The notes under the pieces are model-generated. The model was given only the letters and a program-made list of their open reading frames with translations. It ran no database searches and was not told where the DNA came from. A stretch of 64,000 bases of DNA from Escherichia coli (GTDB taxonomy: Bacteria > Pseudomonadota > Gammaproteobacteria > Enterobacterales > Enterobacteriaceae): assembly GCF_013122565.1 (NCBI RefSeq), contig NZ_CP053258.1. One strand, 5' to 3'. Positions 35,629 through 41,329 of this stretch are shown here, one piece after another. The translations under genes and the position numbers were made by a program. Position 1 is the stretch's first letter, and each line of letters begins with the position of its first letter.

Positions 35629-35927
35629 GTAGAGATCCAATATTTAAGGGCACGGTTTTTGCAACCGTGTTCTTGTTTGGCCTTTCCTTATAGCCGGTCA
35701 GTGCATTCACCACCACAAGCAGATAATAACTTTATCTGTATTTCTTTATATGATGTGAGCATATTCAGGAAAAATGACCTTTCCTGAGGTACAGTTGCTC
35801 GCTCAAAACCTTTGATTACTGCGGATAAAGTCATCTACTATTGTTTAACACATTCACGCGCTGCATGTATGTTCGGAAAATGTGCACGCTAAGATAATTA
35901 AACAAAATTGTGGTTACAGAGGTATCA

Positions 35928-37181
35928 GTGAGTCACTGGGCTACATTCAAACAAACAGCAACAAATTTATGGGTGACCCTACGGCACGACATGCTCGCGC
36001 TGGCCGTCTTTTTAAATGGATTGCTTATTTTTAAAACAATCTATGGTATGTCGGTCAATTTGCTTGATATTTTCCATATTAAAGCATTTTCAGAGCTGGA
36101 TCTCTCCTTGCTGGCAAACGCCCCACTATTTATGCTCGGCGTATTTCTTGTCCTGAACTCCATTGGCTTACTGTTCCGGGCAAAGCTCGCATGGGCAATC
36201 AGTATCATTTTGTTGTTGATAGCGCTAATTTACACCCTGCATTTTTATCCGTGGCTGAAATTCAGTATTGGATTTTGCATTTTTACGCTGGTGTTTTTGC
36301 TGATACTGCGCAAAGACTTCTCCCACAGTAGCGCCGCAGCCGGGACAATTTTCGCATTTATTAGTTTCACGACGTTACTGTTTTACTCCACCTACGGTGC
36401 GCTTTATTTAAGCGAAGGTTTTAATCCGCGAATAGAAAGTTTGATGACCGCGTTCTATTTTTCAATAGAAACCATGTCAACCGTCGGCTATGGCGATATT
36501 GTCCCTGTTTCTGAGTCAGCACGATTGTTCACTATTTCGGTCATTATTTCCGGCATTACCGTTTTTGCCACCTCTATGACCTCAATTTTTGGTCCGCTTA
36601 TCCGCGGGGGATTCAACAAACTTGTAAAAGGAAACAATCATACAATGCATCGTAAAGATCATTTTATTGTTTGCGGGCATTCGATTCTCGCCATCAATAC
36701 GATTCTGCAACTGAATCAACGCGGACAAAACGTAACGGTTATCAGCAACTTGCCTGAAGATGATATCAAGCAACTTGAGCAACGCTTAGGCGATAACGCT
36801 GATGTTATCCCCGGTGACAGTAATGACAGTTCAGTATTAAAGAAAGCGGGAATCGATCGTTGCCGGGCCATTCTGGCGCTGAGTGATAACGATGCAGATA
36901 ACGCGTTTGTTGTACTCTCGGCAAAAGATATGAGCAGTGATGTTAAAACAGTTCTCGCCGTCAGTGATAGCAAAAACCTGAATAAGATTAAGATGGTACA
37001 TCCGGATATCATTCTCTCACCGCAACTGTTTGGCAGCGAAATTCTGGCGCGAGTTTTAAATGGTGAAGAGATTAATAATGATATGCTCGTTTCAATGTTG
37101 TTGAACTCCGGTCATGGCATTTTCAGCGATAACGATGAACAAGAAACGAAAGCTGACAGTAAAGAATCGGCGCAAAAATAG
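35928..37181 (+). CDS. kch: Six-TM K+ channel homologue with cytoplasmic RCK domain
   Basis: GTG start giving (M)SHWATFKQT... (417 aa); selectivity filter TVGYGD in TMSTVGYGDIVP; C-terminal Rossmann-type RCK domain (HFIVCGHS...). Confidence 0.9.
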   Translation: MSHWATFKQTATNLWVTLRHDMLALAVFLNGLLIFKTIYGMSVNLLDIFHIKAFSELDLSLLANAPLFMLGVFLVLNSIGLLFRAKLAWAISIILLLIALIYTLHFYPWLKFSIGFCIFTLVFLLILRKDFSHSSAAAGTIFAFISFTTLLFYSTYGALYLSEGFNPRIESLMTAFYFSIETMSTVGYGDIVPVSESARLFTISVIISGITVFATSMTSIFGPLIRGGFNKLVKGNNHTMHRKDHFIVCGHSILAINTILQLNQRGQNVTVISNLPEDDIKQLEQRLGDNADVIPGDSNDSSVLKKAGIDRCRAILALSDNDADNAFVVLSAKDMSSDVKTVLAVSDSKNLNKIKMVHPDIILSPQLFGSEILARVLNGEEINNDMLVSMLLNSGHGIFSDNDEQETKADSKESAQK

Positions 37182-37551: not shown

Positions 37552-39376
<1,825 letters not shown>

Positions 39377-39387
39377 CGCTTGCAATC

Positions 39388-39413
39388 GGATGTGACGCAG
39401 CTGCGTCACATCC
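39388..39413. terminator. Perfect 26-bp palindrome between convergent yciU and the channel ORF
   Basis: ggatgtgacgcag / ctgcgtcacatcc, exact reverse complements; starts 12 nt after the yciU stop and contains the TGA stop of the minus-strand channel ORF; no T-run on either side, so terminator function is inferred. Confidence 0.5.
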
Positions 39414-40275
39414 GCTCTTCATTTTCCACATCTACCTTTTCCCTCCCCAGTTCATTGCCACAAATACGACAATACTTCGCATCCTGTGCATGATTTTGGG
39501 TATTGCATTTAGGACAACAGAGAAGTTTTTTAGTCTGTTCAAGTTCGCTGGTGAGTTGCGCAGTAATAATCCCCGTCGGAATTGCAATGACTGAGTAGCC
39601 AATTAAGATTAATACTGAGGCCACCATCCTTCCTGCCTCTGTATGCGGCGTAATATCCCCATATCCAACGGTAGTCACAGTCACTATCGCCCAGTAAACC
39701 GCTGTACCCAACGAGTTAAATCCGTTTGATGCGCCTTCTATAGCGTACATTAACGCCCCAGCGACGATCATCACAATTGCAATAAATGCATAAAAAAGAA
39801 TCAACTGATGTCGGGCATTTTTTATCGCCCGCCATAAACTGTTTAAGGCAGGCATAAAGCGAAGCAGGCGCAAAATTCGCAACGCGCGAATAGCTCTCAT
39901 CGCTCGCCAGGCAAATAAATAAGTAAAACCAATTTCAGGCCATAGCCACATAACATACAGCGGCAAAATGGTGGTCAGATCGATAATTCCCCAAAAGCTA
40001 AAAACATAACTTACCGGATTCGGCCAGCTTAATATCCGCAGGAAATACTCGATGGTGAAAATTAAGGTAAAGAAGAGTTCCACCCAGACAAAGATATGCC
40101 ATTCGTCGTAGGTTAACTGAAATTGCGATCCAATACCGGATTCTATGAAAACAACGCCAACACTTAACAATGCGAGAAAACCAAACAGCGCCTCGCATCG
40201 TCTACCGGTTTTTGTATGCCGATCAAAAAGAAAATGATAAAACCGCTGACGATAGCCTGAAAGTTGTCCTGTCAC
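39406..40275 (-). CDS. Kv-type voltage-gated K+ channel homologue (6 TM, charged S4, TVGYGD filter) with C-terminal Cys4 zinc-ribbon tail
   Basis: 289 aa; GTG start 5 nt after SD GGGAGG; S4 segment RAMRAIRALRILRLLRF with Arg at every third position; acidic countercharges in S2 and S3; pore AIVTVTTVGYGDITP; tail CCPKC...CRIC; not remembered at this position in K-12. Confidence 0.8.
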   Translation of the reverse strand: MTGQLSGYRQRFYHFLFDRHTKTGRRCEALFGFLALLSVGVVFIESGIGSQFQLTYDEWHIFVWVELFFTLIFTIEYFLRILSWPNPVSYVFSFWGIIDLTTILPLYVMWLWPEIGFTYLFAWRAMRAIRALRILRLLRFMPALNSLWRAIKNARHQLILFYAFIAIVMIVAGALMYAIEGASNGFNSLGTAVYWAIVTVTTVGYGDITPHTEAGRMVASVLILIGYSVIAIPTGIITAQLTSELEQTKKLLCCPKCNTQNHAQDAKYCRICGNELGREKVDVENEERM

Positions 40276-40286
40276 CTGCGCCTCCC

Positions 40287-40317
40287 ATGAAAAAGGGCCG
40301 GCAATTGACCAGCCCTT
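40287..40317 (-). terminator. Intrinsic terminator after oppF
   Basis: Minus-strand hairpin AAGGGCTGG-TCAATTG-CCGGCCCTT followed by TTTTT, 8 nt after the oppF stop and directly abutting the SD of the channel ORF. Confidence 0.6.
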
Positions 40318-40324
40318 AACCGCT

Positions 40325-41329
40325 TTATAACGGATCGACTTTCAGGCAAGAAACGGCGTGTCTGAAACTCCCCTCCAGCACAGGACGTGTTTTGGCACAC
40401 TCCGGACCGGCAATCGGGCAACGGGTACGGAAAACACAACCGGAAGGCGGGTTGATCGGCGACGGTAATTCCCCTTCCAGTAACTGGATGGTTTTGTTCT
40501 TCTCCAGATCCGGATCAGGTATGGGGACTGCCGACATCAATGCCCGGGTGTAAGGATGTAGTGGATTGTGGTAGACCTCATCATAGGTCCCCAGTTCTAC
40601 CGCATGGCCGAGATACATCACTAACACACGATCGGAAATGTGTTTTACCACGGCCAGGTCGTGAGCGATAAAAATTAATGACAATCCCATCTCACGTTGC
40701 AACTGCTGGAGCAGGTTGACCACCTGCGCCTGAATTGACACGTCCAGCGCCGACACCGGCTCATCACAGATAATCAGCTTCGGTTCAAGAATAAGAGCAC
40801 GAGCAATCCCGATACGCTGGCACTGCCCACCGGAAAATTCATGCGGATAGCGGTTAATCAGGTTAGGCAATAACCCGACTTTCAGCATCATCGCCTTCAC
40901 GCGCTCGCGAACTTCCTGGCGTGACATTTTCGGATGATAGGTACGCAGCGGTTCAGCGATAATCTCACCGATGGTCATACGCGGGTTTAGTGATGCTAAC
41001 GGATCCTGGAAAATCATCTGAATATCACTGCGAACGGCACGCCATTCATCGGGCTTCATGCCCAGCAACTCTTTACCTAACCAAGCAACATGACCGTCGG
41101 TCGCCTTGACCAAACCGATGATGGCGCGAGCAAAGGTGGACTTACCGCATCCCGATTCCCCTACCACACCTAATGTTTCCCCTTCATACAGGCGAAGAGT
41201 GACACCATCGACGGCTTTGAGCGTTTTCGGCGGTTGCCAGAACCACTGCTTGCCATCTTTGATTTCAAAGTGCACTTTTAGATCGGCGATTTCGAGGAGG
41301 ACTTTTCTTCCTTCGGTTACAGCATTCAT
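40325..41329 (-). CDS. oppF: Oligopeptide ABC transporter ATP-binding protein
   Basis: 334 aa; Walker A GESGCGKST; ABC signature and C-terminal oligopeptide-type extension. Confidence 0.95.
   Translation of the reverse strand: MNAVTEGRKVLLEIADLKVHFEIKDGKQWFWQPPKTLKAVDGVTLRLYEGETLGVVGESGCGKSTFARAIIGLVKATDGHVAWLGKELLGMKPDEWRAVRSDIQMIFQDPLASLNPRMTIGEIIAEPLRTYHPKMSRQEVRERVKAMMLKVGLLPNLINRYPHEFSGGQCQRIGIARALILEPKLIICDEPVSALDVSIQAQVVNLLQQLQREMGLSLIFIAHDLAVVKHISDRVLVMYLGHAVELGTYDEVYHNPLHPYTRALMSAVPIPDPDLEKNKTIQLLEGELPSPINPPSGCVFRTRCPIAGPECAKTRPVLEGSFRHAVSCLKVDPL

Follow-up and report, generated by a model that had tools for sequence, protein, structure and literature searches.

A conserved C-terminal Cys4 ribbon, predicted to bind zinc, in a clade of bacterial Kv-type potassium channels

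Several channels carry a cytoplasmic module immediately after the inner gate helix: KcsA has a helical bundle, BacNav a coiled coil, Kch and MthK an RCK domain, and MloK1 and SthK a cyclic-nucleotide-binding domain. The voltage-gated K+ channel described here, encoded in a stretch of 64,000 nucleotides of Escherichia coli DNA (assembly GCF_013122565.1, contig NZ_CP053258.1; the whole stretch is hereafter the window), resembles them in this respect, its module being a predicted zinc ribbon at the C-terminus. The modules of KcsA, BacNav, Kch/MthK and MloK1/SthK are much larger or are helical bundles, and have known roles in assembly or ligand gating; we found no characterised precedent for a zinc ribbon of about 25 residues placed after the inner gate helix. 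In its core, the channel is like KvAP, MVP, KvLm and the eukaryotic Kv1-4 and Kv7 channels, with six transmembrane segments of the Ion_trans type, the TVGYGD filter, the S4 ladder, the F/E/D charge-transfer centre and the P-T-G hinge. Unlike all of these, it has a C-terminal zinc ribbon.

The tail of this protein is very probably a real, conserved zinc-ribbon domain, with metal binding predicted from its four cysteines. Our preferred interpretation is that the protein joins a Kv core to a real ribbon acting as an interaction module tethered to the gate, and we give this statement as a whole, including the proposed function, a probability of about 0.5. A ribbon of some 25 residues close to the gate would offer a handle on the regulation of bacterial Kv channels that is small, mutable and ready for pull-downs.

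The channel and its terminal ribbon

The channel gene and the parts of its product used below are as follows.

39406 to 40275, minus strand: coding sequence of a six-transmembrane voltage-gated K+ channel of 289 amino acids, from the open reading frame and its translation (GTG start at 40275, TGA stop at 39406-39408)
39865 to 39906, minus strand: S4 voltage sensor, R124-R137, motif RAMRAIRALRILRLLR, with Arg at each third position
39655 to 39675, minus strand: K+ selectivity filter TTVGYGD, T201-D207, read from the sequence
39517 to 39552, minus strand: linker, residues 242-253, TSELEQTKKLLC, polar and basic, joining the first knuckle to the conserved part of S6
39448 to 39516, minus strand: zinc-ribbon core, C254-L276, CPKCNTQNHAQDAKYCRICGNEL, with putative Zn ligands C254, C257, C269 and C272

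An exact-sequence look-up showed the protein to be identical to WP_171459460.1 (QJU24431.1), recorded as 'ion transporter [Escherichia coli]'. Pfam matched the whole channel to Ion_trans (PF00520, E=1.2e-31, residues 30-247) and Ion_trans_2 (PF07885, E=4.9e-18). In an alignment of 109 sequences, the filter residues T202, V203, G204, G206 and D207 are invariant, and the S4 arginines R124, R127, R130 and R133 and the conserved charge-transfer residues F73, E76 and D99 (S2/S3) are invariant or nearly so; R137 also belongs to the ladder, and S6 has its hinge at P233-T-G. A sequence search of the PDB ranked the transmembrane cores of Kv4.2, Kv1.2-2.1, Kv2.1, Shaker and KCNQ as nearest to the channel (E from about 1e-23 to 1e-14), and no chain in this search aligned past its residue 248. 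That the gene encodes a bona fide Kv-type channel, predicted to carry a K+ current, is strongly supported by these sequence features. About 28 N-terminal residues precede S1; they include one Cys, C27, which is not conserved. An earlier note, made from the DNA letters alone, had stated that the channel has no RCK, T1 or cyclic-nucleotide-binding domain. Our Pfam scan bears this out: it gave just Ion_trans, Ion_trans_2 and weak zinc-ribbon matches, and none to RCK, T1/BTB or cyclic-nucleotide-binding domains. The ribbon is also the sole recognisable cytoplasmic domain in Pfam scans of the channel and of longer family members, as the same note had it; the scan of 27 longer variants revealed no recurrent extra domain beyond Ion_trans and zinc ribbons.

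The translation ends exactly in CCPKCNTQNHAQDAKYCRICGNELGREKVDVENEERM, the 37 residues that had been reported as the zinc-binding tail. Two details needed correction. The 37 codons fill 39409-39519, and base 39520, previously counted with them, belongs to the codon of Leu252; the CPKC and CRIC knuckles are separated by 11 intervening residues and not 13, giving the motif C254-x2-C257-x11-C269-x2-C272 (codons at 39514-39516, 39505-39507, 39469-39471 and 39460-39462, respectively). Five of the six cysteines of the channel fall within a stretch of 20 residues in this tail, the fifth tail cysteine, C253, not being conserved; this clustering and the conservation of the four ligand cysteines (below) go beyond chance. 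The match of the whole protein to the Pfam family Zn_Ribbon_1 (PF13240) is weak (residues 254-276, E=0.0014), whereas the isolated tail matches PF13240 at E=1.7e-5 (24.9 bits) and DZR at E=5.8e-4. When 61 family tails were scanned singly, 25 matched DZR and 18 matched PF13240 (E<=1e-3). We place the tail in the Zn_Ribbon_1/DZR clan by these profile matches, its two CxxC knuckles, the conservation of its cysteines and the predicted pair of hairpins (below), and predict that it binds Zn.

The AlphaFold2 model, computed from the 109-sequence alignment, has a mean predicted local distance difference test score (pLDDT) of 82, falling to about 74-78 in the ribbon and below 50 in residues 279-289. 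S6 is predicted as one continuous helix (residues 213-251), and the ribbon as a knuckle of two hairpins, which among solved folds comes closest to RanBP2/NZF zinc fingers. Modelled alone, the tail of 30 residues forms four short strands with a pLDDT of 78. These predictions strongly support an autonomous Cys4 mini-domain composed of two beta-hairpin knuckles and shaped like a RanBP2/NZF finger. The zinc-ribbon pattern proposed in the earlier note is thus upheld by the PF13240 match of the isolated tail, the invariance of the cysteines (below) and the predicted fold. A PDB search with the tail profile returned only weak generic matches (RPA12, the N-terminus of RNF213, DZANK1) and no homologous solved domain.

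We took conservation counts solely from sets of sequences that had not been selected for the motif; alignments A1, A2 and A3 were built from motif-bearing sequences, and Cys invariance in them is circular. Each of the 120 homologues that best match the window protein, at 61-94% identity, has the four cysteines as CxxC-x(10-11)-CxxC; these homologues belong to Escherichia, E. albertii, Kluyvera, Cronobacter, Raoultella, Klebsiella aerogenes, Citrobacter, Enterobacter, Buttiauxella and Pseudescherichia. The cysteines are also present in 119 of 119 homologues of a distant member, P0142, which is 37% identical to the window protein and represents a branch centred on Bacteroidota. A broader sample was drawn from 1.84 billion proteins clustered at 50% identity. 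Of the 150 best-matching cluster representatives, 108 were eligible, having a single pore and enough length for a ribbon. In 86 of these the ribbon lies 40-90 residues from the filter, and in a further 5 its linker is longer. The earlier note had named non-conserved cysteines as one outcome that would refute its proposal; this check does not refute it, the cysteines being conserved in 120/120, 119/119 and 86 to 91 of 108 sequences.

The similarity extends beyond the cysteines. The family consensus is C-P-x-C-[GS]-x-E-G-H-D-x-D-A-x-[YFH]-C-[KR]-x-C-G-x-x-[LM]. A length of 11 residues for the loop between the second and third cysteines is shared by 198 of 216 sequences and by every one of the 119 distant-branch proteins; its His is found in 64 of 84 representatives and, again, in all 119. 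The loop sequence E-G-H-D-x-D-A is almost invariant in the Bacteroidota-centred branch, where 98 of the 119 proteins terminate 4 residues past the fourth cysteine. The window ribbon, CPKCNTQNHAQDAKYCRICGNEL, agrees with the family at H, D, A, the aromatic residue, G and L, and departs from it at the E, G and D of the loop. As a separate observation, the E, H, D, D cluster in the loop of the Bacteroidota-centred branch looks like a possible second site for a cation or proton; the window protein retains just the H and one D of it.

A fortuitous or decaying cluster of cysteines on a disordered tail, with no metal site, would fit the weak whole-protein match (E=0.0014) and the lack of a zinc-ribbon annotation in most database entries. 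Against this stand the ordered fold predicted by AlphaFold2 and the preservation of cysteines, spacing and flanks across phyla at 31-40% identity, and we regard this explanation as effectively refuted.

Outside Enterobacteriaceae, we verified the ribbon in members from Cytophagales, Flammeovirgaceae, Flavobacteriaceae, Thermoanaerobaculia, Oligoflexia, Calditrichota and Desulfuromonas. The cysteines, their spacing and the flanking G, A, aromatic and L positions are kept in Proteobacteria, in Bacteroidota and in further phyla, although overall identity is 31-40%. A Foldseek search of AFDB50 returned 'ion transporters' of the same length, matched in fold and length only, from Vibrio, Photobacterium, Shewanella, Plesiomonas, Pantoea, Serratia, Paraburkholderia, Comamonas and Capnocytophaga; those from Vibrio and Shewanella hint that the family may be more widespread still. 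The comparisons strongly support the ribbon as a conserved signature of a large and widely distributed clade of bacterial Kv channels, common in enterics and in Bacteroidota and other environmental phyla. The combination of channel and ribbon had been called unfamiliar. This is correct in that searches of the PDB and the literature gave no solved or described Kv channel with the ribbon, but the fusion is no rarity, since it marks a large bacterial clade.

The fusion has remained invisible to routine annotation, which mostly lists Ion_trans domains only. Most database entries are named 'ion transporter', with PF00520 and PF07885 alone as precomputed Pfam domains, and the zinc ribbon is sub-threshold in whole-protein scans. 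A minority of homologues also carry PF13248, PF24460 or PF24463, and some entries of the family are mislabelled 'KcsA', 'MlotiK1' or 'cyclic nucleotide-gated'. No NCBIfam model scored above its cut-off for the channel, the nearest, for MVP-type channels, being far below. Our literature search, which covered a minority of subscription journals, turned up no paper on a prokaryotic K+ channel bearing a zinc ribbon, and a search on cytosolic zinc ribbons in membrane proteins yielded precedents alone. Zinc ribbons are promiscuous domains, and the proteins are already in databases under generic names; what we describe is a widespread, uncharacterised domain on a familiar type of channel.

Candidate roles at the gate

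S6 is well conserved to about residue 241. The columns of the linker that follows carry 0.5-1.0 bit, compared with more than 2.5 bits for residues 230-238, and contain occasional indels. Despite this variable sequence, the linker has a nearly constant length of about 12 residues: the offset from the filter to the first ribbon cysteine clusters at 51-53 residues, both among the cluster representatives and in the distant branch, and the ribbon normally occupies the extreme C-terminus. Because its tether to S6 is short and constrained in length, a ligand of the ribbon could influence the gate.

We therefore favour, though tentatively, a regulatory interaction at the gate as the role of the ribbon, a proposal whose chances we put close to even or slightly below. 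The zinc would be structural. With one ribbon per subunit, four would lie near the cytoplasmic mouth of the pore, as judged from linker length only. There, they would make reversible contacts that bias the opening or closing of S6 or couple the channel to the physiology of the cell. Each ribbon might touch its neighbours, the cytoplasmic side of the channel itself or a soluble partner, and the family loop (E)-G-H-(D)-x-D-A between the knuckles would be the best candidate for a contact or sensor surface. We take the G-H-(D)-x-D part of this loop to exceed what the generic Zn_Ribbon_1/DZR scaffold has. An interaction module is also suggested by the nearest solved folds, of the NZF/RanBP2 type, and by the ribbons of ZitP and GltJ, all of which are docking modules.

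Some observations weigh against this interpretation. The sequence of the linker is poorly conserved, which argues against a rigid mechanical coupling, and so does the minority of members that carry the ribbon on low-complexity linkers of 90-110 residues rich in Pro, Ala and Ser (P0206, P0219, P0241 and P0244). Because of these few members, rigid coupling of ribbon and gate is not universal; they also bear on the question whether proximity to the gate is required. No conserved neighbour gene in the loci compared points to a partner. Finally, the conserved non-Cys positions (P, G, A, aromatic, G and L) mostly belong, we presume, to the generic Zn_Ribbon_1/DZR scaffold, and the conserved non-Cys residues, the His of the loop included, may be purely structural.

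Assembly of the tetramer, which the earlier note had listed among the possible functions, is the one we favour least. Close relatives with the same core and the same N-terminal motif have no ribbon, and an obligatory role in assembly is therefore unlikely. We know of no characterised prokaryotic Kv channel that requires such a domain to assemble, and the ribbon would not be needed to build the tetramer here either. We considered a link between the ribbon and the pre-S1 motif I-I-F-x-x-D-T-x-x-G-x-x-F-D and rejected it: the motif also occurs in ribbon-less relatives, and a regular expression for it matched 39 of 72 ribbon-bearing representatives.

The four invariant thiolates, tethered some 12 residues beyond the conserved part of S6, would also suit a labile Zn(Cys)4 switch. 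Oxidants (H2O2, HOCl, electrophiles) or zinc limitation would release Zn and unfold the ribbon, altering gating and tying K+ flux or membrane potential to stress in the manner of Hsp33, RsrA or DksA-type proteins. Several bacterial Cys4 zinc sites are redox sensors, and the K+ efflux systems KefB/C respond to electrophiles. In the distant branch, the invariant His and conserved acids of the loop (E-G-H-D-x-D) could form a second exchangeable site for a metal or proton, but these E/D residues are not retained in the loop of the window protein (NTQNHAQDA). The ribbon has no similarity to known redox-switch families in Pfam and PDB searches, its nearest structural analogues, the RanBP2/NZF fingers, hold structural zinc, and no gene for oxidative stress or zinc homeostasis was seen linked to the channel at the loci compared. 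We consider such a switch unlikely, both in its release of zinc and in its effect on gating.

We hold equally improbable the more general idea that the ribbon is a new gating sensor, through which opening would depend on redox state, free zinc, protons or a universal partner; the inputs would be received by the thiolates and by the invariant His and Asp of the loop. If this were true, the ribbon would supply the missing physiological input for bacterial Kv channels from Enterobacteriaceae to Bacteroidota, and no smaller regulatory domain would be known in any Kv channel.

The small size and terminal position of the domain would also befit a passive structural cap that aids biogenesis by rapid folding of the C-terminus, cytoplasmic retention or topology, protection from proteases or stabilisation of the tetramer, and regulates nothing. 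Most conserved non-Cys positions presumably belong to the generic Zn_Ribbon_1/DZR scaffold, and the same Pfam zinc-ribbon families are found on cytosolic ends of unrelated bacterial membrane proteins (PMC3355149, PMC11237479). Set against this are the ribbon-less relatives that have the same core, and the exact loop of 11 residues with an invariant His across phyla, which exceed the needs of a simple cap. A passive cap appears to us marginally less probable than the redox switch.

Zinc ribbons often bind nucleic acids (PMC3355149, PMC3581485), and many members of the family have basic residues before C254. The ribbon might serve to hold the channel to RNA or DNA, nucleic acids being bound by many zinc ribbons and by some RanBP2 fingers. 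The loop between the knuckles is nevertheless acidic in most of the family (EGHDxDA), and there is neither a conserved aromatic or basic signature of RNA binding nor a contextual link to nucleic-acid functions. We regard a nucleic-acid tether as very improbable.

Genomic setting and the end of the protein

Three further features flank or follow the ribbon-coding part of the gene.

40281 to 40319, minus strand: elements of the oppF-channel spacer, a terminator-like hairpin with U5 at 40293-40319 and a strong GGGAGG Shine-Dalgarno sequence at 40281-40286
39409 to 39447, minus strand: non-conserved tail, residues 277-289, GREKVDVENEERM, predicted to be disordered and lying outside the module
39387 to 39414, no strand assigned: perfect palindrome of 28 nt, the terminator hairpin of yciU (-22.4 kcal/mol, z = -5.4), followed by a T-rich tract on the plus strand

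The channel gene sits between oppF and yciU-cls, within a yciU-oppF spacer that spans positions 39377-40324 of the window, and the order oppF-channel-yciU-cls is shared by E. albertii and Kluyvera. The stop codon of oppF and the start of the channel are 49 nt apart (40276-40324), compared with 15 nt in Kluyvera, and the Shine-Dalgarno sequence lies 5 nt before the GTG. We found no sigma-70-like promoter within 39300-40450; the channel may rely for its expression on oppABCDF read-through or on a promoter lying within oppF. The surroundings differ in two distant members of the family, whose neighbours are unrelated: one lies beside genes for a MacAB/TolC-like pump and a two-component system, the other beside Usp, GFA and MAPEG genes. 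Gene neighbourhood was accordingly rejected as a route to a partner, there being no neighbour conserved between the Escherichia/Kluyvera loci and these two.

The gene is present in 3 of 5,426 complete E. coli genomes, those of the pigeon strains PT62 and LP5-1 and of the frog strain ET201. The window is from E. coli proper, because its flanking oppCDF DNA is 97.6-98.5% identical to that of ordinary E. coli. Strain 042 has no channel: its spacer of 52 nt retains the hairpin on the side of oppF, and 18 unrelated bases replace the channel gene and the yciU palindrome. The simplest reading is that an ancestral enterobacterial gene has been deleted in nearly all E. coli. The window also encodes an RCK-domain K+ channel, kch, at 35910-37181 on the plus strand, 2.2 kb from the zinc-ribbon channel, so that two K+ channel genes flank cls-yciU in this strain; the Kluyvera locus has the zinc-ribbon channel and no kch at the corresponding place.

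The residues beyond the ribbon had been described as an acidic tail. We found them to be of mixed charge (5 acidic, 3 basic) and unconserved, with a pLDDT below 50, and tails past the ribbon differ even among the closest homologues. The yciU palindrome covers the stop and the last two codons of the channel, to which yciU is convergent, and the end of the tail is in part read-through into the yciU terminator. Residues 284-289 are present because of a single base: position 39426 is C, giving GAA (Glu284), whereas PT62 has A, giving a TAA stop and a protein of 283 amino acids, the two sequences being otherwise identical over 151 aligned bases.

Relation to described zinc sites and ribbons

Bixby and colleagues reportedly described, in 1999, a Zn2+ site in the T1 tetramerisation domain of eukaryotic Kv2, Kv3 and Kv4. 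The channel resembles these proteins in having a cysteine-bound zinc, predicted here, in a cytoplasmic domain near the pore axis. We rejected membership in that class: the T1 site lies in an N-terminal BTB fold and is shared between subunits (HX5CX20CC), whereas the putative site of the channel is C-terminal and within one subunit, and the protein has no BTB/T1 match in Pfam. Searches of Pfam and the PDB gave no homology to families of zinc-thiolate switches (Hsp33, ZAS anti-sigma factors, DksA type).

The closest relatives by profile are the ribbons of PF13240, PF12773 (DZR) and PF13248, with which the channel ribbon shares CxxC...CxxCG knuckles, the pattern D-A-x-[FY]-C-x-x-C-G-x-x-L and significant hidden Markov model matches. 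Such ribbons are often found at the cytosolic end of membrane proteins (PMC3355149, PMC11237479). Unlike the others, that of the channel is single, C-terminal and fused to a channel, and has a fixed loop of 11 residues with a family-specific G-H.

The RanBP2/NZF fingers (TAB2, Npl4, Nup153, RBM5, MDM2) are eukaryotic and 14-22% identical to the ribbon, a resemblance of fold only. Their family profile, PF00641, gives no significant match (E=0.0052 for the tail and E=7.9 for the whole protein), and the loop has 11 residues rather than 10, so the ribbon was not classed with them. Nor does it have their signature, W-x-C-x(2,4)-C-x3-N-x6-C-x2-C: no Trp is conserved before the first cysteine, and the +4 position is Gly in the family and Asn only in the window protein.

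The other comparison is with the bacterial proteins ZitP and GltJ, which also have a two-hairpin Cys4 ribbon on the cytoplasmic side of a membrane protein. Their ribbons form a 'crab claw' of the beta-beta-alpha-beta-beta type, in which about 19 residues separate the Cys pairs (PMC5182065, PMC11135422). The channel ribbon was excluded from their family, zinc_ribbon_5 (PF13719), by the lack of a Pfam or PDB match and by a spacing of 11 residues as opposed to 19 (C5, C8, C28, C31). The ribbons of ZitP and GltJ are N-terminal, on long flexible linkers, and do not belong to channels, whereas that of the channel is C-terminal on a short linker. In both proteins the zinc is structural; the ribbon of ZitP docks PopZ, and that of GltJ switches between an internal linker and MglB (PMC5182065, PMC11135422). 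Although it belongs to neither group, the channel ribbon may work like the RanBP2/NZF fingers or the ZitP-type modules.

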